Notes under the pieces: generated by a model | Told to the model about the DNA's origin: nothing | Databases searched by the model: none | Seen by the model: the letters and a program-made list of their open reading frames with translations, nothing else | Program-made: the position numbers and the translations under genes | From: Trichoplax sp. H2 | Taxonomy: Eukaryota | DNA length: 64,000 nucleotides | Reading direction: 5' to 3' | Assembly (NCBI GenBank): GCA_003344405.1 | Contig: NOWV01000001.1 | Coordinates: forward strand, 682,001-746,000 | Shown: positions 8,466 through 45,169 of the stretch, piece after piece | Position numbering within the stretch: the first letter of the stretch is position 1 | How the letters are laid out: each line of letters begins with the position of its first letter

Positions 8466-11072
8466 TTAGAGTAAGATTTTAAATTTTTCCGTGCGAGGTA
8501 CCCTGTTAATAACTAATCTTCCATCATAAGATAAAGAGGCAAATACCCAAGGATCTGAACATGACCAACATGACGCATATACACTATCTTCGTGTTCCTC
8601 ATATGTTGCAATAATTCCATCTTTCGGTGGTTCTTCCTCCCTTTAGAATATTAAAAGCACAATTTATCAACTGTAGAATCACTAAGCAACTTACAGAAAG
8701 ATAAAGAGATAATTTTACTAACAATACTGGCTTAACGTACTTATTTGAAGTTGATTCTTCGTCATCAATATCTTCGTACTGACCGAATGGCTCCGACGAT
8801 AAAGATATTATGTTAAATAACATTACACGACTATCACTGCTTGACGATAGAACTAGTTGATCGTGGAAATGGTTGTAGGAGACCGACCAAACCCTGTATG
8901 ATAAATTTCGTATTTGACAATGGAAAGATGCAGTATTCTATATCAACTGCTGATTAATCGTAAATTCAATCACATGTAAGAGTAAATAATGTACAATACT
9001 ATATGTTACTCACCAATGAGAATGATTGGTTAGTTTAAGTAGAGGTTCCGTACTATTTCTGACATCCCAAAACTTAACTTGGCAATCATCTCCACATGAT
9101 ACTACATAGTAAGGTTTGTTGGGATTAAAATCTAGGTCCCGCACAAGTATTCCATGAGCATTTTCAATAGTATATGCTGGCCTAGATTTGGAATTATCAC
9201 AATAAATATATTAATAAGATGAGTGAAACCGTAAATTATTGGAAAACATAAGGGCATTCCAATGTAGTAATAGCAGTAAAATATGAATACATAAATTGTT
9301 AAGGCCAGTGCTGTATTACTTCATTGCTCTAAGATCCCAGGCCTTTATATTGGTATCGTAGGCACCAGCAACTTGAGTGCCGTTGTGGTGAGGATTCCAG
9401 GCAGCTGACGAAAAGCTTAAGTGACTCTTTTCACCTAAATCTATAACGTTTAAAACCTATCCAAACGGAATCATGAAGTAACAGGATTGTCAAAAACTAT
9501 TGATTATAATTAGAGCCCCTATTAAATTTCGTCGTTTATACATCGAATCTGACCTTGGCAGAAGCGCTGGTGGCTACTTGAAAATCCCATATTTGTAAGT
9601 GCTGATCATGTACGCTCATGAGAGTAGATTTATCTTCGTTAGGATGCCACAAAACACTATCAAGAGATCGCAATAGAGGAGTAATGGACGTAATAAGAAA
9701 GCATTTATAATGCATAATTATACTCTAGTCTCTACAGTAAATTTCGAAAACCTTTTTTCGATTTTACAACGAGACCTAGTTACGATGTATATGTGCATAA
9801 TTAAATGTCGCTATCATTAATGTAAATACAGTATTGGAATTTACCTTTTCATATTTTCAATATCACTACTTAGGTGAAATTTAGGAACGAGAGGTGGAAA
9901 ACTCATACCGGCAGTACTATGACGGGTATTGGTAGGACCTCCTAAATCTGAATCCATCGAATATTGAGCAGTGTGGCTAGATGGAGTTTGGGGTTGTACA
10001 GGTGACGTCGGTACTTCATCATCAGTTGGTATTTTCCATGCCGTAGCATGCCTATTAGTTTTGCTACCATTAACTGTCAGACAAAGCAATAAAGAAATAT
10101 TTTATTACACATAGAAATGTTTTAGTCCCAATGATTTCTAAACGTCTTTGATAGCAGCATTATTCAGTAAATATTTCTAAGAGAACTCACGTCTGTCATA
10201 ACAAGTTAGTAAAATTTCTTTATCTAGAGGGCAAGAGCTAATATGCCTAAGCAAACGTAATAACACGTTATAAGAGACTCTGGAATTCACAAAGCTTAGG
10301 TTAATTAATATCACGGTATATTATCCTTTAGTACGCTGCAATTTTGTACTTGCGTCGATGTAAGCATTTGCAAATTGTCACTGCATGATGCTTGGGGTAT
10401 AATAGTTTTATGCTTTCAATTTATAAATACTGTAATGCTGTATTATACGTTTGGATACGAGTATATGTATGTTTAATCTTACCATACTTCCCCAATCGGA
10501 TGAAGATAGACATTACTATTTATAACGTTATTTTCCTCATCGAATTCTATTAAATGGACCTTTCACAAATATTAAAATAAAAAAATGATTAACGATAAGT
10601 AATCAAAACGTATCCAATAAACTTTTACATCTTTTAACTACAGGGTGGACTGCATTATATTACAGTATATCCTTTCTTGTCTTTAAAGTCAGGAATTCAT
10701 AAACGATATGGCAATAGCAATTACCTGATTATCATTTTTAAACGATTGTGTTCCTACTAGAAATTGAATATGATCAATATCACCTACTACAGCACACAAG
10801 GCCCGCGCCTGTAAATAAAACAACAAGAACGTTAACATATTCACCTTGATATTCAAATTATTTACAGTAACATGACCATTTGCATCTTCTCCATACGAGT
10901 ATACCACGTATTTATTTTATTTATCTATAAAGCTGTACTGACTATTTAATATAGTTCAACAGTGAAGAGATGAACATGCCAACATAGATCAATATTTAGT
11001 CTTTAAAACGTTAAAGTGCTGCTATCATACCTGAAATTCTAAGCCATAAATTACTGCGGAATCGTCGTCCAT
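8466..11072 (-). CDS. EIPR1: EARP/GARP-interacting WD40 protein (TSSC1/EIPR1)
   Basis: [14 protein letters not shown] / ARAL...[13 protein letters not shown] / [14 protein letters not shown]..., [30 protein letters not shown]...[47 protein letters not shown]...[29 protein letters not shown]. Confidence 0.95.
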
Positions 11073-11360: not shown

Positions 11361-14096
11361 CAAAGATTTGAAGTCAATCTAAATCTGCTTCCGAATTTTA
11401 TAAATAAATCAAATAACCCCACAAATACTCCGACAGAGTTCATCAAGATTAACAAGAACTTGTAAAAGTAGTCCTACTGTATTGCCATCACTCTGTGAGG
11501 ATTCAACAAGTTACTTCTCCGGTGCAGAATCAGCCTCAGATTCAGGGCAATGGGGGGGGGGGTATCGTCATTCGATCAGAGTGGAATGCAATTTTGACTG
11601 ATTTTGTTTCACAGCGACTATTGGGAAGCTAGTAATCATTATATCATTGTCGCACTAATTTCAAGCATCAATCAATAATACAGTAGATCTGATATCAAGT
11701 TCTACGCGCATAGTAGCAACGTGGTAATTTGTTACTGTAAATTTTCAATTACATCCTAATTCCAGTATCAATAAACGAATATGCTTACGTAAATATAGAG
11801 GCTAAAGGAAGTACGCGTAGCTGTCCTTCATGAAATCAATCTTTATGATAGTAGGCTTGTCGAGAGTATTAATTATGTAGCTCTAAGGTTACTAACGCAG
11901 TAAAATTATAATTTGAATTACGTAACTCCTTACTTGAACATGACTATTCTAGAAAGTACTGCTGATATACATTTACTCTGCTTTCATAATTTTTCCGTGA
12001 CATCAAATATGCAGGATATCAAGCGCTATTCTATTGCTACGAATTGAGTAGTTTTGGTGATATTACAGTTAGAACCAAACACAAATAGGGACTAAACAAT
12101 CTAAACCCAGTTACAGAGTGCAAAGTAGTAGATAATCCATATGCGTAGAATTAACAATCTACTTTTAAAGTACATTGCTGATTGTAATTCAGAATTGCCA
12201 TAGATATAAAGAAAACTTGTCAGAGTAACGAGCACTTATTATCTCATTTAGGATAATTTGTCAGTGTACAACATGAATCAGGACAAATATTCTATAATAC
12301 TTAGTTGTGGCGTAGATACATGGAATATTAATTTTAATTAGTTTACTAAGCGGCTTGGCAGTTCATACAGTACATACATAACTTGCAGTATATTTAAAAT
12401 TAACACGTGCCTCTGCAACTTATTCATAACTTTAGTTTTGCTACATTGGTATGTTCTAGAAGAACCCCTATACATTACATTACATATGACCACTTGAGCA
12501 AATGATATCGGTAAGTTTGACACGATACCTGCTCGCAAATATTAACATTATTTCCGTTTATGTCGTTGTCAAAGATGTACAACATTACTTTTTGACTTTA
12601 ATTCAATTGCTTTTATGCCTCTAAAAATTATTTAAATAGACTTAAATTAATTGCTTGTGCAGATCGTTGAGGCGTTTGTAATGCAAGCGTGCGAATAAAA
12701 TTATATATCGAAATTATTGATATGCATAATAAGGACCTACAGTCATGCGAGCTAGGATGTATCAAACATGGCAAAGGTGTATAACTTTAGATGACATTAG
12801 TCTATTTGTGATGATGATCTACTGCGATTGTTTACGAATAAAAACTCAATATATATGTAGAATTCATATAAAGCCTTTATTCCTCAAGTAAGTTAATTTA
12901 CAATTAGTTAATTCACAACTTAACCAATTTTCTATAAACGGATATATTTAGAGGATTTGGAACTCTAGTATTGACTTCTATTATCAAAAGTTAATTTGAT
13001 GATAATAGCCTTTGTTAAGATATTAGTTTTAAGAAATTTTTTATTTTGAATTCTAATTCGTATCTCTAAAGGTCATCAATCCATGGTGATTTTAATTATT
13101 TTGATATCACGCTGATTATATTGTAACATATGTTAATTTAGCCGCGAAGAAAAACAATGACTTCTTGTGAATGCCCTATAAAATTTATCAAGGACGTAAA
13201 TGAATGTAACTCCTTCCAATTTAACGCAATTAGTATCAAGCCAGCTAAATTAATTTGATATTAATAGGAGAGCAGTGACAGCTTTAAATTAAAACAAGTT
13301 TTCTTTAAAATTGACAACTATTCCTTATAGATATAAGTATTGAATTCCTATAAAATTCGAAATTGTGTATCACGTATCATCTATAAATACGTATGTATTA
13401 TTGATGAGAACTTTTCAAAATACAGTCAATACATAGCATGGAATATGTTAATTTTCACGAATAACATACCGCCTCATAGCAATGTGTGCAGATGTATTGT
13501 CCAAGGCTAAAGTTGGGCTATATTGTTATATTGTTGTAGATGGTTTCTATGGAAACCACGCTGGGCAATGAGAAGGATTGAAGAATTTGTACCTAATAAA
13601 ATCGATCTTATCCTGACATTGTATTGCTAACTCCTACATTATAACAAGTACAATTTACATTATTTGTCGTTTCATAATTAAAGGTTTGTCACTTTGCTGT
13701 GATGCACAGCTGCAATGATTTCATTGCAATAGGTACATCACTTTTCGTATGTTCTATGCTGACACAGTTTGAGAATAAAATTGGATAGGAATCGCTGCAA
13801 AATCTTGTAATAATTTGCGAAAAAAACGCTGTAAGTATTGCATATGACGCCTGTTGATTAAACTAGCTATATCACGTAAACGTTGTGTGCGATAGAAGCT
13901 GTGATTACACTAGCTATTTTCTGATTAATATATTTAGATAAATGAGGCATTGTCTGTTTAGCTTGTTTTAAGGAAATCTTATATTGATTTTTATCGATTT
14001 AAGGTAATAAACGAAAAGCTGGTCAAATAATTCGATTGAAAGGTAGAAATTATAAAAGACTTCATACACCTTTAGCAAGGATAGTGATCAACTAGA

Positions 14097-17000
14097 ATGG
14101 ACATGGAAGGAGAAAATTCTGAACAAGAAAAAGAAGAACAAAATATAGAGACAAGAAATTCGAACAAACAAAGTGATCAACTAAGCCCACATGATAGTAA
14201 TAATATAGATAATCATGATGCCAATAGTATTGATAGAAGACAATCATCAATAGGAGAAGAAAGTTCCCTGTCTGATAAGGTTTCTAATCTTGATGAAAAA
14301 GATCAAGCGGATGATCAAGGTGATAACGTTAAAGAAAGTAGTGATGAAAGCCCAGAAGAAAAGGCAGATGAAGAACAGAAAATAAAAAGTGTAGATGGAA
14401 ATGATGCCCTTCAGAATGGTATTAATGCCGAACAAGACGATGATAAAAATAGCCAAGAAAAAACTGATAGAGTGAATCATGGCATGACGAACGGGGATAG
14501 AGAGGAACCTACTAACGATCAGCAAAATGACCATGGGACAGATGTTAAAAATGACGATGGGCAACAAATTGGCCAACAGGATCAAACAGCAGAAGCTGAT
14601 AAACCACCGGATGGAAGTGTTCAAGTATCAAAACCTAAACGCAAGCGACGACGGAATATCTTCATTTCGTACAGTTTAGATGCACCATTTACTGAAAGAA
14701 AGTTGGTTGCAGAGACTGTTAAACAACTAAAAGAACTCGGTTTTCATGAAGATCTATGGTATGATAAAGATGAGATTGAGATAGATTCGCCATTGTGTTT
14801 TTCAATTAGGATGGAACAATCTGAGCGTTGCAAAGCTGCAGTATTATTTCTTTCGTCAAGTTATTTTCATTCACGAGCATCATTTTACGAATATAACACC
14901 TTAATTCAGCGACATCGTTTAGCAACAACACAGGCTACGCCATCTGACACCAGACCAATTAAATTATGTGTTATCATTTGCGAACCGTTTAATTTCCCGA
15001 ACGATATTAGTTATATTTCATCAGATCAAGTTATTTTGCGGTTAGATGGCAATTCTATGTCGAGATTAAGCATAGCTGAAAAGGCATCTGCTGCAATTGG
15101 GACCTTGACTAAAGTTTTAGAACCATTTTGTTCGGGTATAGCAACTCGTTTACCTACGCCACCTTCACGGCATGGCCTGTCAGACAGCTATAAAGTAACT
15201 AAATTATTAAAATGGTCAGTCGACGACGTTCAGGAGTGGCTAACAAGTTTGCAAATTCATGAACGCTATATGATGACATTTGAAGAGTATCGCATCGATG
15301 GTTACTTGCTAAGTTGTTTAACAGATGATGATCTCATCCAGCAATTCGGCATAGATAGTCGAATAACAAGGAAAAAATTACTACAAAAAATACGAGTGGA
15401 ATTAGAAAACGAAGTTAAATCGCCAAATAATTGGTATTTACGATGGCATTGGGCTAGAATACGAGATAATAGTGTTTATGTAATTTACGATCCGATGGAC
15501 AAAAAAGTTGTTCGTTCACTAGTTGAGGATTTATCGAAAAAGCATTATCAGGTATTGCATTAGTGATCTAAGTGCGTCTCATTTACGTACTACAGTAATA
15601 ACAGTTTTAATTAAATATCTTTATCATGGTTATCACTATATAGAAGTAACATTGGCCATTATACAGTAGTACAGTAATATAGTTTTTATTCTTATTCAAT
15701 GCCATAATTATTATCAGTTTATTTCTGATTGATAGCGTATACGTTTTTCTTAGAAATATTTATATCTTTAGTAATTATTATCTGCATCCCCAATTTTAGA
15801 TACTGGCCCATGATAAATTAGGGCGATCGAAGGAAGAATTTATTCGTTTTAATGGTCACCGATTAGCCGTATCCAAGCATGTTGTAATTGTATTGACAGC
15901 TACATCCGCAGCATCACCATTTGTCTATCAAGAAGTATTATTAGCCGATTGGTTGGGCAAAACACCAATCTCTATGGTTTTTCATAATTGCTATAACAAC
16001 ATGAAATTATCATTACGGTCAATACTAAATGATCGCTCTGCGGTTGATTTCCAACATACTCCGTATAATGATGCTATGGATGTCTTATTTTTCAAATTAC
16101 ATTCTGGTTCACATCTTCATGGCGTTTACTTACAGCAAGACTACATCGAACGAGTTAATGATAATATGAAAACGCTACAGTCGATAGGATCGCCAGGTAA
16201 GCTTATGATACTAGGTAATATACGTCAAATCATCACGTCAGAGGAAATATTGCTTTTACACTAAATAAATATCTGACTAATATGTGCTGATTGATTAATT
16301 AATTAAGACCTTTCCTCAACTTTATTAGAAGGTCAATCATTTACAGACAAGGATCCGGTTGTTTTTATATCGTATCAATGGGATAGCCAGTCTAAAGTAG
16401 TACTATTGAAAGAACAATTGGAAGCAAATGGTATTCCTTGTTGGATAGATAGGCCGAATATTACAATTAATAAGAATCAGATGTCCTCGCATACAGGACA
16501 TAATAGAACATCCGGTAAGAACATAAAGTTGCCTTTGTTTTTAGATTTCTTTCTGATATTGCAATGTTGAGGTATCTTTTGATTTCAGCTATTTATGTAG
16601 CCACTTACTAGAACCTATTAGACTATGTCGTTAATTTAGTATATATATATTACTTTATAATTGACAATATAACGGAGCTTAACGATGATTTCTTTTGAAC
16701 ATGAACTAGCTTTAATTAGAAATACCATACGGTAGTATTTAGAAATATTTTATGTAATCTCTTAGGATCGTGGGATACAGTCTTTTATATTATCCGAAAA
16801 ATTAAGCAGTATTTTATTTATTAAAGTCACCTACCAGCCTATTATAAAAAGTGAAAGTGATCACGATACATAGTAGAGAAGCATTTGCTATATAAGCTTA
16901 ATTTAGCATTAGCGTATTGCAAAGTACAGTATTGTTACAGTAGTGCTCAGGTATAACTCATAGTTATCTTATTATTCATGCTACGTTGCTAAACATTCAA

Positions 17001-17515
17001 TACAGTCCATAATTATGGACCATACTGTACATTTATGAGCTAGGATTCAATGTATTGCATGTATTAGTATATCTGGAACAAAAAGCAGCCTTAAATATAC
17101 TTAAAAGCCTAATAAACTCGGTTCTATTTCATGAATAGGTATGGCATCCTCTCTTTCCAATAACATGACAAATATTGTGACAGATACTATTCAAAGTGAA
17201 ATTCAAAGAGTCATGAAAAACTGCAAAGTAGTACTTTGCTGCATGACACCTAAATATACGAGATCGGATAATTTCTATAAAGATTTGGCATTAGCCGATT
17301 CTCTTTCCAAGCCAATCTTGCCTGTAATGTTACATTTTATGCCATGGCCGCCAGAAATTGCTGCACTCCATCTTCGTAAAAACCTGGCTAGCTTAGAATA
17401 TATCGATATTAGCAGTGAGAAATTATTTAGAAGAAATTTTGCTACCGTAATTAACCAAATTCAGCGCCACCAATCACAAACTATGGCGGTACCAAAACTG
17501 CCACCACTGAAATAA
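14097..17515 (+). CDS. Uncharacterised TIR-SAM-TIR-TIR protein (~804 aa) with acidic disordered N-terminus
   Basis: Exons 14097-15551, 15800-16196, 16329-16514 and 17139-17515 (phases 0,1,1; 2415 nt). TIR1: RNIFISYS...LWYDKDEI...CKAAVLFLSSSYFHSRASFYEY. SAM: WSVDDVQEWL...YMMTFEEYRIDGYLLSCLTDDDLIQQFGI...RKKLLQKI. TIR2: VYVIYD...SKHVVIVLTATSAASPFVYQEVLLADWLGKTPISMV. TIR3: VFISYQWDSQ...LEANGIPCWID...CKVVLCCMTPKYTRSDNFYKDLALADSLSKPILPVML. Confidence 0.88.
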
Positions 17516-33000: not shown

Positions 33001-35016
33001 TGCACCAATTCTTGCACATGCCAAGACAGCTATTGGTAGTTCAAGTATCATGGGCATATAGATAGCAACGTGGTCACCTTTCTTGACACCTGAATTATGG
33101 AAGTTTGTGATATTTATTTATGACACAACGACATGCTTGTTTAACATTGCGGTAGCATTAATAATTAAATAGCTTAATAATATGATATCGCTAATTCTTA
33201 AAACTTTCGATTATAGTACCTTTAGCCTTTAGAACGTTGGCAAATTGGCAAACTCGGCGTTTTAGCTCACTATAGGTAACCTTAGAGTCGTCACCTGGTT
33301 CGTTTCCTTCCCTACATACGGTATATGGGTAATAGATAAATAAGTTGTGAAGGAGTGATGTACATCGTCAAAGTCATGTGTGGATACTCAATTTCTGACA
33401 TCCATGCGATAATCTGCGCATTTGGATTAGGCCGTGATGAATATTAGATTGCAGTAAAAGAGTACATAAAATCTACGATTATATTACAGTGAAAGCATAC
33501 GCAGTTGATGTTAAGATAATCAAGTCCGAAGTGGTGTACTGCTCGGTTGGAAATGAATTCTGATCACTACTCGATATCTCAATGAAAAAGTCAGTGACTG
33601 AGGTTAGCAGATGAGGCATTTACTCGTATGTACGCGTACGCTTTTACTTATATTTAGAAAAAATATACAGCTAAAAATGCAAATATTGCATAAACGCAGT
33701 TGCAATAATAACAATTGACTATAAAAATGATTTATAACGACTATGATAGCATATTAATATATGTATATCGCAATAATTTGTACGCTAATTTTGTACACGT
33801 GGAACAAACAATTTTCTATATATAAACCTGATCGTTCACGTTAAGTCTAAAATAAACAGGATTTCGGCTTAACAGTTTATATTCAGTGTTACGGTGTGGC
33901 GATTGGCTATTATTTATTATCATTATAAGTTGGGTCGAAAAGCACGGAGTAAGAGTTAAATTGCTATTTTCCAGTACCGTTTAAGCACTACAGGAGTGTT
34001 TTTTAGTACTAGTTTAATTTTAATTGATTTGAATACCGTAGTCGAAATTAAGCTGGAGGTAAATTAATTAATAGTTAGCAAATGATCTAGTAGTAAAAGT
34101 CAGCTACTAAGGTGATTATAATTTGCAATTTTATACCTTGTCATGGAAATCGTCACGATTTAACAAGAGTATAGGATAGCTTATTTAGATTCGAAATGAT
34201 ATTGTGTTTCAATCGTCATGCAATTACAAGGTTGTTAATTGCTAATATGCACAGTTACTGCAGTGGTTTCGTCCATTGGTAGGATGGATCGCGAGAATAC
34301 TACCATATTATTGCAATAGTCCCTGTACTATAGATACTACATGTGGAGTGATATCGTTCTATGAACTTATATCCTTGTTATATCATTGTAAATAGTAACT
34401 AATTGTATCGGATGCATGGCTTAAGTTTAACAACTCTATCTATTATGCCCAGTATGGATAGTTAATCCGATAGTGCTACAGTAGGGCATAGCTACACTAT
34501 AGAGCTAAAAATGCAGGACTACTTTGTGGATGATTTTGGCGACGGCACGTTGCTTACGCAATGCAAAGATGATCATCAAGCATAGTTGAGAGGTGAGTTG
34601 GTTAATAAATAATACTAAACAACTACTCTATGTAATGCAAGATTGCATACTACTTAAGCAACGTATTTAGATAGTGATGATTACCAGTAGAAAGCAACGT
34701 TATCACCAAGGCCATTTTCAATATTGCGATCAATAACATTATAACAGACGTTGGTTTTGATACCCTCCATAAACTTGATGAAAATTCTGCCGTTACTTTT
34801 ACTAAAGTTGTAATCGAATACTCTGCCTTCTGGTGCACCTTTCCAATAGAATTGTTTAGCTATATCGCCCCAAAAAGCAACTGGATCGTTGATACTCCTA
34901 TCATACATCTTACGATATTCCTCCATGCTCTTAACATGAGCTTCAGCAACAACTCTTGGACTTGGAGGATAAACCGGTCCCAAGGCTGATTTTTCAATAT
35001 CTGCAATGTCTACCAT
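30037..35016 (-). CDS. ACSS2: Acetyl-CoA synthetase, cytosolic ACSS2 type (multi-exon)
   Basis: [12 protein letters not shown]...YNF...[17 protein letters not shown]...LGDNVAFYW (ACSS2-type N-terminus), [88 protein letters not shown]. Confidence 0.96.
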
Positions 35017-36744
35017 GTTGAATCTTGACGATTATTCCAACAATGATAAAATGATCGCTATAACTGAAAGGATTTCGGCGTTTACCTAGCAACTGATTCC
35101 GTCCAATGAATCAAACCAATGTTAGCAAAGTTGGATTCGACTCCTACTATAAAAGTAGCAAAACTACTTCCTACTGCACCTACCTCACGTCCAGAGCCAG
35201 CAACAACAGATCGCCCTTTGCGCTTTGGCACTTCGCGCGAGGAAGAAGTATCGAGTGTGGAGTTGCATAGTACAGTACTGTAAACTGTACTGTACACTGT
35301 AAATTACAGTACATCCTATTGTAGTACCGCCGTCCTAGGAATTGTCAATGGTATCCAATCCAGTAAACAGCTTGATCTTTTTCGTTTCCAATTCTTTAAT
35401 ATGAAGTTCAACACTTAAGTATTAACCAATGCAACATAATATATATACATCAATGGCCATGAGAGCTTACTGTTTCCACATATTGAAAATTGACCGGATT
35501 TCGTGAAAAAAATGCCCGTATATACTGTAATATGTGCTGATTGATCGGATTGGAAAAGGATCATACTGGACTGCGCCAGTATATCGTAGAAGAAAACAAG
35601 TGTCGTCCATGCATACAGTATATACTAGTCCACATCGAAGTTCCGATTGAGGTCGATAAACCATATTGGGCGTATGTGGTACGAGTACTGTATATGTGTA
35701 CAGGCAGACTGTAAACAAATAAATACTAAATAAATAATGTATAACCCATATAACCAATACTGGCTACTGTAGTGTTATTATGATCTATAGCGTTGTCCAT
35801 GTGGGCATGGCCAGGGACGTGTTCATCACTCCATGCATGCAGAGTACATAGTGCAGTACATCCAGTTACGGACTAGTAGGCAGAGGAAAAGAAAGACGGA
35901 AACTTGGTGTTGACTGGACTAGAGAGGGCGCGGCCGACATTGCTGGTCATTTTACAGCAAGTGTGCAGTGCGCTATATCTGTAATACTATACATTACAGT
36001 ACCTCAGTTATGAACTCGAAAGGTACTTTAATAGTCCATGCCTCTATCTAGATCTATGAATTTTCTTCTAGCGGTCTATGGTTTGACTTTTATACCTGCA
36101 ATATTTTGCAGACCCTAGGAAAACGTTTCCAAGGGTTTTCTTTAGTGGTTATTGTGCAATGTGTACAGTACTACGGTAAATGTGACAGCTTCTTTGCACT
36201 GGACTCAGTCGTGTGTCCAAACTTGAACTATGCCAACGATAAATTACAGGTTCTCAGCATGTAAATGCAGAGGAACTAACAGGAAAGAAAGAGAGCATCC
36301 GTCAGTGCAAAATAATGTCAAGGCCTATCATTTTTCCGGTCATTCTACTATATGGTGCAGCAATGAAACCGTATATCATACTGTACACTGTACAGAACCA
36401 GCTTAGCAGCCTATTAGCAGCTAATTTGCATGTCAACCGCAGACAGGGTAGTGTTCCGTTACAGACATGCAATACCGCTGAGATGGCCCCAAAATAATCG
36501 GCTTGCACATTATTAGTATTGTCAACGATCGCTTTACGTCCCGGGGCCTCTTTTTTTTCTTTCTTTCTTGTGCAGTAGTCCTTAGTAGTCTCTGGTAAAG
36601 GATGCTTTCTCACCTGTTCACGTCGACATCACGTTTTTAGTCTTCTTAAAACAGTTTGAAACTGACAAGTCCCAACATTGTGCAACTTGTGGGCCATGAA
36701 TGCAGCTGTTGCATACGCAATGTCACGGCTGGAATGCTGTAAAC

Positions 36745-39489: not shown

Positions 39490-42400
39490 ATGGTGGCAAC
39501 ACGGTCTCGATCAAGCAATAACGGTCGGCGTAATTTGCTCACTAATATCATCAATTCTAGGCATTCTCGTAGAAACAAACTCGTTGTCAATAATGTTAAT
39601 CAAGAGGTAGGACAAAAAGGCATAAAAATCTTTATTTTCATTGCATATCTATATTTATGTACTAGCTCCGGTTCGCTTGACAATCACCGTAAATATTACC
39701 ATTTCTATTTTAATTATCGCTTTTACAAGATGCTTTCTTTAACGTATGTGTGTTACTGTGGATAATTTTGCTTACTGATATCAATCTAATGACACACACT
39801 ACTTTTACCTTAAATTAGAATCGAAATACATATATTAACTATTGTAATTAAATACTGTTGCAAATTATTACAAATGTCGATAAACGCCATCGCAAGAATG
39901 GCTAGACATTAACACATATCTAATAACCCAACTATCTATCTTATTTTCAGAGGGCATTCTTAAAAGATAATGCGGATGACAATTCCGTCAATGTTGAGCG
40001 CCCGAGTTCACATCGGTAAGAGATTATGATATACATTATTTAAGACTAATCTATAATTGTCTAAATTGATTACATGTTGAAGCTACGATTATCTTGATAC
40101 GGTAGTCATTGCTATCAGGTTCACTCACGTATAAAAATTTCGTTGTAATGATTGAGCTACTATCCAGTCTTACTGGCTTATTTATACAATTAAATCGTTT
40201 TATGTGCACTCCACAGATTACGATCCTTGAGAGGATTTATGGATTTTGATGATTCAAATGATAATTATAATGAAAGAAACGAAGGTAATATTATATTGAA
40301 ATGATTACGTTACGTATATACAGTACTAGGCCGATTGTATGATATTGGTCTGAGTTGCAATTTCGAAGTACATTTTATGCCATAAAACATTCTCTCTGTT
40401 ATTACTCTTTATGGTTTCAAATTTTATGAAATTTTAAGGTACGCTAAGTATCTTTACCCTTTTTAATCCGTTAGATATTGCTGCTGACGGTATAAACGAC
40501 GAAGAGGAATATAACGGTTGGTTAAGACGTAGTAGTCGTCAAAGACGACTAGTTTACAATTCCTTAAATCTTGACGTACTCACTGGCAAGAGTGAAATTA
40601 GTCGTGCTGTTACAAGTGCTAATGTAAGTATGATTTTATATACAAATTTCGGTTCGATATATTAGTTATCTATATTCGATATGACGCAGTTATACGTAGC
40701 ATAGATAACCGTACTATTCTGATATTGATACGGAGTAATCCTTTAAGTTATATATCTGAATATAAGAAAAATACGTGTACTGGATTAAAATTTCTAGTAT
40801 TTTTATTATGGACCCGTGGAATGTAAAATTATATGAACCTGTGCTGTACCTATAGAACGTAGATGATGAGATTTCTGAGAGTAACGAGGACGAAGACGAT
40901 GACGATGATGAAGACGATGACGATGATGAAAACGATGATGAAGACGATGATGAAGACGAAGATGAGGATGACGTAGAAGAAGACGATAAAGATGACGAAG
41001 ATGAGGGTTTGTATATATATGTATATATGTATGTATTCATATATAAATCCAACTACACCCATGTTAATTACTAATATATTTAAAATACTAAAATTGGGTT
41101 GATACCCTTCATCACTTCATTAATTAATAAATGTAGGTAATTTCCATCGCCGTAAGTACAACTTACGTGAAAAACGTCATGTTCCGACACGATTTAGTAT
41201 CCCAATTGGAGAAACTATAAAGCGCCGTCGAAATCATGCAATGCGCCCTTGGCTTAAACATGTCAAGAAAGATACCTCAAACCGACGACGTCGAGAAGAG
41301 AAACGACAGTTACGTATAGCTGGTAACGATCAAGATTCCTTCTCCAGTGATGAAGAATGGTTTGAGATGCGAAAGCAGAGAAGTCTTATGCGATCTAGAA
41401 ACCGATTTCTTCCTTTAAATTTTAAACGTAAGAGTAATAGCTTGTTATTATCAGGTGATGCGTATCAATTTTATCATTCATTTTTACTGTATCATAACTC
41501 TTGCAGCTGAAGATTTATCGAATCACAAAATTATTGAACAAAGATTAAAGATTGGATCCAGCCTAGCTGATATTGAACCTATGGCGATAGATTCAACAAT
41601 TACTTTTGATGATATTGGAGGCTTAAGCAATCATATCAACTCTTTAAAGGAAATGGTATTGTTTCCCCTGCTTTATCCAGAAGTATTTCAAAAATTTAAC
41701 ATAACTCCTCCAAGAGGTGTTTTATTCCATGGTAAGCCAGGAACAGGTAAAACATTAGTAGCTCGAGCTGTTGCCAATCAGTGTAGTCTCGGTGGAAAGA
41801 AGGTAGCTTTTTTCATGAGAAAAGGTGCTGATTGTCTTAGTAAATGGGCTGGAGAATCTGAACGTCAGCTACGATTGTTATTCGATCAGGTCGGTAGTCG
41901 TTGACATAACCCATGTTTGAGATACTCAAATTACTTTCCAAGTATGACTTATAGATTTATATCCGGACTAAAATTTAGGCTTACGGTATGAGGCCAGCCA
42001 TAATTTTTTTCGATGAGATTGATGGTTTAGCACCAGTTCGCTCCAGTAAACAAGATCAGATTCATTCATCGATTGTGTCAACATTATTAGCTTTGATGGA
42101 TGGACTGGATAATCGAGGCGAAATTATAGTTATTGGTAACTATAGTGTTTTGTAGTCTTCAATCAGTGATTTATTTATTTGTTCGAGATATTGATTTGAT
42201 TAATTGAATTGTATGATGGTCACTTTAGGTGCTACAAACCGTGTCGATGCGATTGATCCTGCGCTTAGACGTCCTGGAAGATTCGATCGTGAGTTTTACT
42301 TTCCTCTTCCTGATAGAAAGTCGAGACGTTCTATAGTGCAGATACATACTCGCCAATGGGATCCACCACTAACGGACGAGTCCATAGACGATATCGCAGA

Positions 42401-45169
42401 TAAATGTATTGGTTACTGCGGTGCGGATATAAAAGCTCTTTGCACTGAATCAGCATTAAATGCTCTACGTCGTAGATATCCACAAATTTATAACAGTAAC
42501 AAGAAGTTAAAGATTGATGTGGATTCGATTCATATCGAACCTTGCGACTACGAATTTGCAATGAATTCAATTACACCGTCTGCCCAGAGGGGTGTAATAT
42601 CAGTTGGGAGACCTTTAAACAAATTAACGCGGCTTCTGTTTAGCTCGCACTTAGATAAAGTCTTTAATTTTTTGAAAACAAAATTTCCGTTTGGCAAGTT
42701 ACTGAACTCAGGTATTCAGGTCTACGTTTCAATATCATTTTTGTTACGCAGCTGTTCATACGTAAAATGTTAATCATACTATTTTTTTGGCTATAGGATA
42801 TGATAAAGCACACAGTCAATCAATCACTGGGGCATTTGAGACCATTATTTATCGTCCAAAACTTCTACTTTATGGTAAATCAGGTATGGGACAGTCGTCA
42901 CATATTGCTCTGGAGATTCTTCATAACATAGATGAAATCCCGGTTTATCACCTGGATATTCCTCATTTGTACACGTCTATGAAAACTCCAGAGGAATCTT
43001 GCGCCCAGGTAATTATAAAGTCCTTTATATTGCAATCTATAATAAGATTGGTACTCCTTTTAGATAGTGCAAATATAAAATTTAGCATCATGCTTATACT
43101 TTTTTGCACACGTACATAGGTAATTATGGAAGCTTCTAGTAAATGTCCCTGTGTTCTATTCCTGCCTCGTATCGAAACATGGTGGTCTGTTGCATCTGAT
43201 TCATTACGAGCAACTATTTGTGGACTTCTGTGCGACTTACAGCCTTCCCTGCCCATTTTATTGCTGGCAACTAGTGATTGCGAAAATTTTACTGGATCAC
43301 TTCCTACGATATTGAGGGAATTGCAAATAACAAAAGATGCATGCTTTCATATCAACTCGCCAGATTACTACGCTAGGTACTTGTATTTTAAAGAAGTGCT
43401 AGAGAATTGTTTTAAAGGGCGGACAAGAAAAAGTTTAGGTAACAGAAATTACGTATTATCACGCGGTATTACGGTAGTAGACGCGGGAATATTCATTTAG
43501 CAATGCTTTGTCTACCTCTTGACATTAGATACTGTTGTCAGAAGTGAAATTGAAACCCTAGAAGTGGAAGATAGTAGCCCGGTATCTAGACAGTTGACAA
43601 AAGAAGAGGTAGATCGTTTGGCAAAATATGAAAGTAATGTCTTTAGAGAACTAAGAATCTTTTTGAGAGATGTTATAAACAGACTCATGTCCGATCGAAA
43701 ATTTTGTTGCTTTGTTAAGCCTGTTAATCTTGACGAGGTTAGAATTCCATTGCTTTATAAAGAAACGCCCTATTATAAGATACATTGCAATCAATAATGT
43801 AAGACTTACTTTAATATGTAATTTTAGGTAACAGACTATTTGGATGTTGTGACGACACCCATGGACTTTTCAACAATTGCTGATAAAATAGATGATGGCT
43901 CGTACACATCTGCCGCACAGTTTGTAGCGGACATTCAAATCATTGTAAATAATGCACTGAAATATAATCCTGTTAGTGATCCACTTAGTAAAGCTGTCCG
44001 CCATCGAGCTTTTATGCTAAAGGATACCGTCGACTCTATTATTGATAAGGAACTTGATAGCGATTTTGAAAAGGTTTGTATTCTATATAGGTATTTCAGG
44101 GTTGTTTCAATGCTTAAGATAATCTACAATATGTTATACGTAGACTTGTGAAGAACTAAAAGAATCCAGAAAACGCCGTGGTAAAGCAATTCTGTTGATA
44201 ATTCATACATGTAGTAAACACTTACTATATAAATTTTATGTATTTGAAAGAAACTTCACTCATTACTGTTATTATAATGTATAGAAAATTTACCGGTAAC
44301 CATTGACGAAAGTCCCAAAACAGATGCAACAAACATCAGTAGTCTTATATACGTACGGAAACCACCAATAAATTCTGTACGATTTAGTAAACGAATTCGA
44401 GGTATAGAAGTAGATGAATCTACAGAAAATTCGTGTGACGAAATTCAGTACCGGCAGTCACAAGCCAAAGCTGTCGTTCAAAACGGAAAATTAAACGATA
44501 CATCAGAAACGACAAGTGTTGGTGAAACTGATTCTCATTTAAATTTCAATGATGGTGATAATAGTATCCGGAATAGTAGTAAGTCGTGCTATTGTTGCCT
44601 GGATAGCTGAAGTTAATGAATACATTACTAATCAATGTTTATATTTCTCACGGAGCTAACATTAGTAACTTCTTTAAATTTAAATTCTTATAAGGTACCG
44701 TTAGTTCAGAGATTACTACCAATTCTTGCCTCCTAATCAGTAATGGTTCTGCTGGTCTTTGTGAAACCGACCGTTATGAACAACTCGGTAAGTGAATAGG
44801 TACAACTTTTTACTGTCCTCTGCATTAATAGCTAGATATCATATTTCTGAAATCTCACTTTTTAAGCATCCATAATATCTGACTTTTTTTATAGATACTA
44901 TAGATAATGGTGTCAGTGATGAGGAATTGAATTCTCTAATTTCTCGTTTGGCCACTTCAACTGCTGAGAACACTATAGAAGATATTGAAAGGCTTTCTGT
45001 GAATATTCACGGATTCTTTAAAAGCTATAGTCAAGTCCATAATAGATGTCCTCCACTGACGGTATATAGTACACGTTATTATATTTTAAAAAACGGTAAC
45101 GTTAAATGACTAATTCCTGCCGTTTTTGATTTACAGGATATTGAACAGTTTATTGCTCATGCTGAATAA
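39490..45169 (+). CDS. ATAD2: ATAD2/ATAD2B/Yta7-family AAA+ ATPase with bromodomain
   Basis: Acidic N-terminal exon; LADIEPM...FDDIGGL...LKEMVLFPLLYPEVF...PPRGVLFHGKPGTGKT (Walker A), FFMRKGADCLSKWAGESERQLRLLFDQ, IIFFDEIDG (Walker B), ALRRPGRFDREFYFPLP; degenerate second AAA GKSGMGQSSH; bromodomain FVKPV...DYLDVVTTPMD...NALKYN; stop at 45167-45169. Confidence 0.95.
40860..41006 (+). repeat. Coding (GAY/GAR)n trinucleotide repeat, the Asp/Glu tract of ATAD2
   Basis: gacgaagacgatgacgatgatgaagacgatgacgatgat... lies inside a GT-AG bounded exon. Confidence 0.85.

Follow-up and report, generated by a model that had tools for sequence, protein, structure and literature searches.

The placozoan Trichoplax sp. 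H2 carries a gene for an 804-amino-acid (aa) protein in which three TIR domains are arranged around one SAM domain, and this gene is an orthologue of an ancient, conserved metazoan TIR-SAM-TIR-TIR family that extends from Placozoa to fish. The gene lies in a 64,000-nucleotide (nt) stretch of the H2 genome (assembly GCA_003344405.1, contig NOWV01000001.1, positions 682,001 to 746,000 of the forward strand), which we refer to as the window and in whose numbering the coding sequence spans positions 14097 to 17515. TIR domains are nicotinamide adenine dinucleotide (NAD+)-processing enzymes in bacteria, plants and SARM1. The catalytic ones require a glutamate in helix alphaC and are activated when they pack against each other by way of the BB loop; oligomerisation is also a property of SAM domains.

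An original prediction, made from the letters of the window, had proposed a TIR-SAM-TIR-TIR protein as a candidate for an undescribed NAD+-cleaving immune signalling or effector system. The architecture stands, with Pfam matches to TIR_2 and SAM_2 and a TIR fold for all three repeats. "Undescribed" has to be withdrawn: the protein has a public annotated model, its family is conserved across Metazoa, and the cloning of a TIR-SAM hybrid gene from amphioxus was published as early as 2008 (Zhang et al. 2008, PMC2575513, in its accessible text). The architecture is already catalogued, without a published assay as far as literature searches show. We regard the gene as a good candidate for assays, being an orthologue of a public, conserved and uncharacterised family, and do not present it as a system of a new kind.

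A single expressed gene

The transcript is assembled from the following parts:

13801-13830, plus strand: 3' end of a non-coding exon of the 5' untranslated region (5'UTR), from RNA contig ends; donor GTAAGT from 13831
14004-14096, plus strand: remainder of the 5'UTR, in the same exon as coding exon 1; RNA contigs begin at 14004
14097-15551, plus strand: coding exon 1, ATG at 14097, aa 1-485; the exon itself spans 14004-15551
15800-16196, plus strand: coding exon 2, aa 486-617 and the first base of codon 618
16329-16514, plus strand: coding exon 3, aa 618-680, with codons split at both ends
17139-17515, plus strand: coding exon 4, aa 680-804, stop codon TAA at 17513-17515

Read from the sequence, the spliced product is 804 aa long, and the three coding introns are all GT..AG with compatible phases. 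The joints 15551|15800, 16196|16329 and 16514|17139 are exact in the RNA contigs that one study yielded in three runs, and since the four coding exons lie together on a single contig of 2727 nt, the locus is one transcript. It is one real, expressed gene. The four coding exons, the 804 residues and the single transcript had all been predicted correctly; the exon count had missed the non-coding 5' exon ending at 13830. That exon comes from the loose 5' ends of the RNA contigs, whose 30-nt consensus has its sole window match at 13801-13830; as GTAAGT follows there, a fifth, non-coding exon and a 5'UTR intron (13831-14003, 173 nt, GT..AG) must be added to the model. The 5' exon reaches at least 138-221 nt farther upstream of 13830; the transcript starts at least that far upstream, and the 3' untranslated region runs to at least about 17596 in the RNA contigs.

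That the 804-aa frame was put together in error from adjacent genes or chance open frames is effectively refuted, and we give this idea next to no weight. The RNA does not split the locus into separate genes: one contig joins the four exons, and the GT..AG joints are exact in all three runs. Orthologues that are colinear over the whole length, from four further phyla and seven named genera, likewise speak against it. No evidence for a false join was found at the locus, where low-depth contigs in the third intron (described below) have the look of unspliced RNA or of carried-over DNA.

The window protein is identical to TRIADDRAFT_58085 of Trichoplax adhaerens at NCBI (P0005 in our set) except at residues 20, 29, 175 and 462. 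Between the window and the RNA contigs about 1% of bases disagree, which over exon 1 amounts to 13-15 differences. The mismatches of both protein and RNA look like strain, haplotype or sister-lineage variation.

Domain layout

From the N-terminus, the protein consists of an acidic region, a basic cluster, TIR1, SAM, TIR2 and TIR3:

14097-14630, plus strand: acidic disordered N-terminus, aa 1-178; predicted local distance difference test (pLDDT) below 50 over most of aa 1-168
14631-14654, plus strand: basic cluster KPKRKRRR, aa 179-186, immediately N-terminal of TIR1
14652-15131, plus strand: TIR1, aa 186-345, by Pfam TIR_2 and model fold; codon of E265 at 14889-14891
15210-15419, plus strand: SAM, aa 372-441, Pfam SAM_2 with E 1.4e-11
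15465-16189, plus strand: TIR2, aa 457-615, with intron 15552-15799 inside; codon of E530 at 15932-15934
16355-17485, plus strand: TIR3, aa 627-795, with intron 16515-17138 inside; codon of D728 at 17282-17284

Over four stretches of the whole protein, Pfam TIR_2 (PF13676) scores 104.5 bits, its cutoff being 28. Taken piece by piece, TIR1 reaches 27.5 bits (aa 188-271), the two TIR3 exons 29.0 and 33.3, and TIR2 15.8. The TIR family PF01582 stays under its own cutoff at 17.7 bits, and SEFIR is likewise sub-threshold. The original prediction had assigned the repeats to the TIR_2 style rather than to that of TLR and MyD88; the Pfam scores (104.5 versus 17.7 bits) and TIR3 agree with this assignment, and TIR1, which finds MyD88 and TLR2 first, does not.

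The SAM_2 and SAM_1 matches span aa 372-433, and the best sequence match of this domain in the PDB is the first SAM domain of SARM1 (SAM1), with E 8.6e-6 for the single sequence and 2.6e-10 for the profile. No ARM, LRR, Death or CARD domain was found by Pfam on the full protein at E<=1. No transmembrane segment is indicated either, the highest 19-residue Kyte-Doolittle mean being 1.32. Pfam and the hydropathy scan thereby uphold the predicted lack of transmembrane, LRR, ARM and death domains. A membrane receptor was considered and rejected, as the protein is without a transmembrane segment or signal peptide; it appears to be cytosolic, as had been proposed.

Residues 1-178 contain 50 acidic (D+E) versus 17 basic (K+R) residues and diverge to a mean pairwise identity of 16%. 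The K/R cluster that follows precedes TIR1 in each of the five named orthologues of full length, and P0011 has a weaker version of it. It could conceivably serve as a nuclear localisation signal or as a membrane-binding element.

Predicted folds of the three TIR repeats

An AlphaFold2 model of the window protein, built on 46 homologues, has a mean pLDDT of 76.4 and a predicted template modelling score (pTM) of 0.64. In the four domain cores pLDDT mostly exceeds 90; the loop 661-695 and nearly all of aa 1-168 are disordered, and 215 of the 804 residues are disordered in total. With the whole model as query, every one of Foldseek ranks 1-20 is a chain of SARM1 or of C. elegans TIR-1. By domain, TIR3 (626-789) superposes on the SARM1 TIR with Z 16.0 (root-mean-square deviation 2.2, 127 residues, 22% identity) and on the Hydra TRR-2 TIR with Z 16.2, and TIR1 (184-345) on the IL-1RAcPb TIR with Z 14.4.

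Pfam recognises TIR2 only marginally, with E 0.02 when exon 2 is scored by itself; of 12 fragments of orthologues that contain TIR2 alone, not one has a TIR_2 match there, and a TIR2-only profile found no TIR among PDB sequences. With TIR2 thus too weak by sequence, we modelled the paddlefish (Polyodon) orthologue P0028, which consists of SAM and TIR2 only, and searched the model against 48,161 representative chains without Foldseek. Its TIR2 matched TRR-2 (Z 14.9), IL-1RAcPb (14.2), the SARM1 TIR (14.0) and ThsB (13.2), the top matches being all TIR. Alignment of profiles with hhalign links TIR2 to TIR3 (E 2.7e-4); between TIR1 and TIR3 it is weak (E 0.03, probability 1.6%) and out of register around the glutamate. 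By these predicted models, all three repeats take the TIR fold, which is flavodoxin-like, alpha/beta and five-stranded. The expectation that the repeats score or fold as TIR is thereby confirmed, for TIR2 through the structure of the paddlefish orthologue.

At the BB-loop site TIR3 carries a disordered insert of about 35 residues (aa 661-695), with 12% pairwise identity, which also houses intron 16515-17138.

These neighbours raise the question of whether the gene is a divergent SARM1 orthologue, an NAD+-depleting executor of cell death rebuilt by domain shuffling. Such a descent is suggested by the SAM domain, whose best PDB match is SARM1 SAM1, by TIR3, with its FISY and WP(P)E motifs and its structural match to the SARM1 TIR, and by the name that UniRef gives to the Holothuria protein. 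Against it, the protein has a disordered N-terminus without any Pfam match in the place of ARM, one SAM and not two, three TIRs and not one, and an Asp at the catalytic Glu position in precisely the SARM1-like TIR; full-length members of the family itself also occur in molluscs, echinoderms, an annelid and a cnidarian. Since the protein lacks ARM, the tandem SAM, the single TIR and, in its SARM1-like TIR, the catalytic Glu, we do not place it among SARM1 orthologues and consider this descent highly improbable. The predicted contrast with SARM1's ARM-SAM-SAM-TIR architecture is confirmed.

A conserved metazoan family

Homologue searches by word index stayed shallow and found 2 and 5 matches. 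An exhaustive phmmer search collected 643 matches at E<=1e-3, of which 41 reach E<=1e-30; the best 150 of the 643, which are unnamed, were examined. Full-length colinear orthologues with 34-40% identity occur in Mya arenaria (bivalve), Diadema (sea urchins) and Nematostella (sea anemone), where the alignments cover aa ~53-794 with the same domain order, and at the same level of identity in Dimorphilus (annelid), Babylonia and Elysia (gastropods) and Holothuria (sea cucumber). Partial orthologue models come from Biomphalaria, Nucella, Protopterus (lungfish) and Polyodon. For the Elysia orthologue, which matches the profile with E 4e-274 at 93% coverage, the source gives the name "Bf-TIR-SAM-like protein".

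In UniRef, the Holothuria protein P0181 is called "Sterile alpha and TIR motif-containing protein 1" and the Mya protein P0007 "ADP-ribosyl cyclase/cyclic ADP-ribose hydrolase". Both names are automatic transfers with no assay behind them, and their bearers fail SARM1's defining features. Full-text literature searches found no assay of the TIR-SAM-TIR-TIR family and no mention of TRIADDRAFT_58085 or of three orthologue accessions.

Among the best 150 of the 643 homologues, about 25 matches end at query positions 484-492 and 9 start at 484-491. Breaks at aa 484-492 look like gene callers stopping at an intron, and the position of the phase-0 intron inside TIR2 (15551/15800, aa 485/486) is therefore probably conserved in many animals. 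In P0010 (688 aa) a TIR3-type domain comes first, followed by TIR1-SAM-TIR2, and the protein equals Biomphalaria P0014 over aa 2-435; its order is probably that of a mis-joined or tandem gene model and not a true permutation.

The catalytic column

For the column of the catalytic glutamate, hidden Markov models (HMMs) of TIR1, TIR2 and TIR3 were built from an alignment of seven orthologues, and the TIR domains of 171 proteins were each assigned to the best model. In TIR1 the column (E265) holds Glu in 62 of 63 domains and Val in the remaining one. We took this assignment from the alignment with TLR2, in which E265 falls on the Glu of "KYEL", instead of from the hhalign alignment of TIR1 with TIR3. 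Of the 34 TIR2 domains that reach across the column of E530, 31 have Glu, those of two fish Gln and one Asp. TIR2 also has an invariant F526 four residues before the Glu (motif S-x-F-x-x-x-E) and a BB-loop motif KLGxSKEEF with invariant G493, S495 and F499.

The TIR3 column is Asp in 44 domains and Glu in four high-scoring fragments that contain TIR3 only; among the 21 TIR3-only fragments the counts are D 16, E 4 and S 1. All seven full-length orthologues share the pair K727-D728. In the PDB profile search, D728 falls on the Glu of "HKEI" in SARM1 and on that of "WDEL" in Cat1, a CRISPR-associated TIR, and hhalign places it opposite E530 of TIR2. As the nearest TIR3 paralogues, those of multi-TIR proteins with a Death domain, keep the Glu within an S-x-N-C-x-R-E motif, the Asp of TIR3 is a derived mark of the family. 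A catalytic, motif-final Glu had been predicted; by alignment, TIR1 and TIR2 have a Glu at this position, and TIR3 departs from the prediction with its Asp.

Searched against the PDB, the TIR3 profile finds Cat1 and SARM1. For the TIR1 part of the family profile, MyD88 comes first (E 4e-4), followed by TLR2 (E 0.13) and SIGIRR.

Proposed function

We tentatively propose, at slightly short of an even chance, that the protein is an enzyme which processes NAD+ in a Glu-dependent way, with catalysis falling to TIR2 and/or TIR1 and TIR3 serving as a partner. Established TIR and SAM biology leads us to infer a TIR signalling enzyme whose activity would require oligomerisation. Chains would be brought together by the SARM1-like SAM, and one or both of the Glu-bearing repeats, TIR1 and TIR2, would cleave NAD+ to ADP-ribose (ADPR) or to products of the cyclic ADPR (cADPR) type. 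TIR3, with its Asp and its long floppy BB-loop insert, would mainly act as a partner or regulatory TIR and not as the main catalyst. The likely setting would be innate immunity or stress and cell-death signalling.

A recent preprint argues, in its accessible text, that NAD+ processing is widespread in animal TIRs too (Hurieva et al. 2026, 10.64898/2026.04.20.719644). According to the same text, the Glu is kept in most non-TLR animal TIRs, and 12 of 61 tested animal TIRs gave cADPR-type products in E. coli.

An adaptor without an enzymatic role is nearly as likely as the NAD+-cleaving enzyme. The TIRs and the SAM would then be interaction modules only, nucleating or bridging TIR assemblies, for instance with placozoan MyD88-like proteins, and the conserved Glu and Asp residues would be structural. 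Several observations weigh against the enzyme, some of them also in favour of such a scaffold. The nearest solved sequence relatives of TIR1 (MyD88, TLR2 and SIGIRR) are scaffolding TIRs, and its nearest fold is that of IL-1RAcPb. The SARM1-like TIR3 has Asp instead of Glu, and Asn or Phe, not Trp, four residues upstream. The TIR2 column is Gln in P0012 (Protopterus) and P0028 (Polyodon), both partial models, which may mean that the vertebrate lineage has lost the function. On self-association of the SAM domain, a complex prediction with four copies of aa 360-445, run without controls, scored 0.01 and is evidence neither way. From the accessible text of the preprint, 49 of the 61 Glu-bearing animal TIRs gave no product, and TLR2, IL-1R9 and IL-1R10 are reported inactive (10.64898/2026.04.20.719644). 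Because TLR2 has the Glu and is yet reported inactive, a Glu at the column is not sufficient for activity.

Placozoan proteins have also been discussed as adaptors. The classification into ecTIR-DC families of invertebrates is reportedly that of Gerdol and colleagues from 2017. In the accessible text of Kamm et al. 2019 (PMC6321704), Trichoplax sp. H2 has 16 TIR proteins, 8 of them in ecTIR-DC families, and the placozoan TIR-only and ecTIR-DC proteins are proposed as possible alternative adaptors.

What argues for the enzyme and against a pure scaffold is that the acid at the column is kept nearly without exception in all three TIRs across roughly the whole animal tree, that TIR2 also retains the aromatic F526 four positions before its Glu, and that an enzyme, SARM1, is the overall best structural and sequence neighbour.

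A further idea, which we consider unlikely, is that the three TIRs of one chain form a pre-formed heteromeric assembly with a composite active site within a single polypeptide. The invariant BB loop of TIR2 might, for example, complete a neighbouring pocket, the switch would be SAM-driven clustering and not relief of ARM inhibition, and the family-specific Asp of TIR3 might tune the chemistry to a distinct nucleotide product. The one hint towards it comes from the pTM values, 0.64 for the window protein and 0.66 for the SAM and TIR2 of the fish orthologue, which suggest a confidently packed multi-domain body. If true, a composite site would be a new way to build a TIR enzyme, older than the split of placozoans, cnidarians and bilaterians.

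Surroundings of the locus

By tblastn, the 64-kb window holds no second copy of the 804-aa protein. Neighbouring frames match an AAA ATPase with lid (41419-42770, plus strand) and the N-terminus of an acetyl-CoA synthetase (34684-35031, minus strand), and a frame at 8602-8937 (minus strand) has a weak match to the EIPR1 beta-propeller. An immune gene cluster was rejected, as these neighbours are of the housekeeping type and no other immune-type gene was seen near the TIR gene. Within the third intron (624 nt), contigs from the RNA libraries cover 16646-17167 at a depth of about 4-5, versus 25-60 in the exons; they may stem from precursor RNA that is not yet spliced, from carried-over DNA or from a feature missing in the annotation.

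Comparison with known systems

MyD88, TLR2 and IL-1RAcP are the nearest relatives of TIR1 by profile and fold, and TLR2 shares its Glu. The Trichoplax protein differs from them in having no death domain, transmembrane segment or ectodomain, and in that TIR1 is part of a multi-TIR chain. With the catalytic non-TLR animal TIRs of Hurieva et al. 2026, it shares, by alignment, the Glu at the catalytic position, in TIR1 and TIR2; the main text of that preprint, in its accessible part, mentions neither Trichoplax nor a SAM-containing architecture.

Amphioxus Bf-TIR-SAM likewise combines TIR and SAM in a cytosolic protein, and its membership in the family rests on the transferred Elysia name. In the accessible text of PMC2575513 the combination is listed among amphioxus hybrid genes, which are mostly amphioxus-specific, whereas the Trichoplax family runs from Placozoa to fish.

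The large multi-TIR proteins of invertebrates with a Death domain (for example that of Patella, 1469 aa) contain, in their tandem TIRs, the closest paralogues of TIR3, with 64-98 bits against the TIR3 HMM and a shared motif S-x-N-C-x-(K/R)-acid-x-x-L-A. Unlike TIR3 they have Glu in place of Asp, and they carry Death and long N-terminal regions, with no SAM seen. The arrangement ARM-Death-TIR-TIR is designated "ecTIR-DC 6" in the accessible text of PMC6836662.

Closest overall are SARM1 and TIR-1, which are also cytosolic proteins with SAM and TIR; the SAM of the Trichoplax protein is nearest SARM1 SAM1, and its TIR3 matches the SARM1 TIR in fold and in the FISY and WP(P)E motifs. In contrast to them, the Trichoplax protein has no autoinhibitory ARM domain, one SAM and not a tandem pair, and three TIRs, the third of which has Asp for the catalytic Glu and a long disordered BB-loop insert. 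The family thus sets a SARM1-like SAM beside three different TIRs with an E/E/D catalytic pattern and no ARM brake, from placozoans to basal fishes. It offers a clean natural test of whether multi-TIR chains form composite active sites and, as a second question, of what role the ancestral animal SAM-TIR module had before SARM1.

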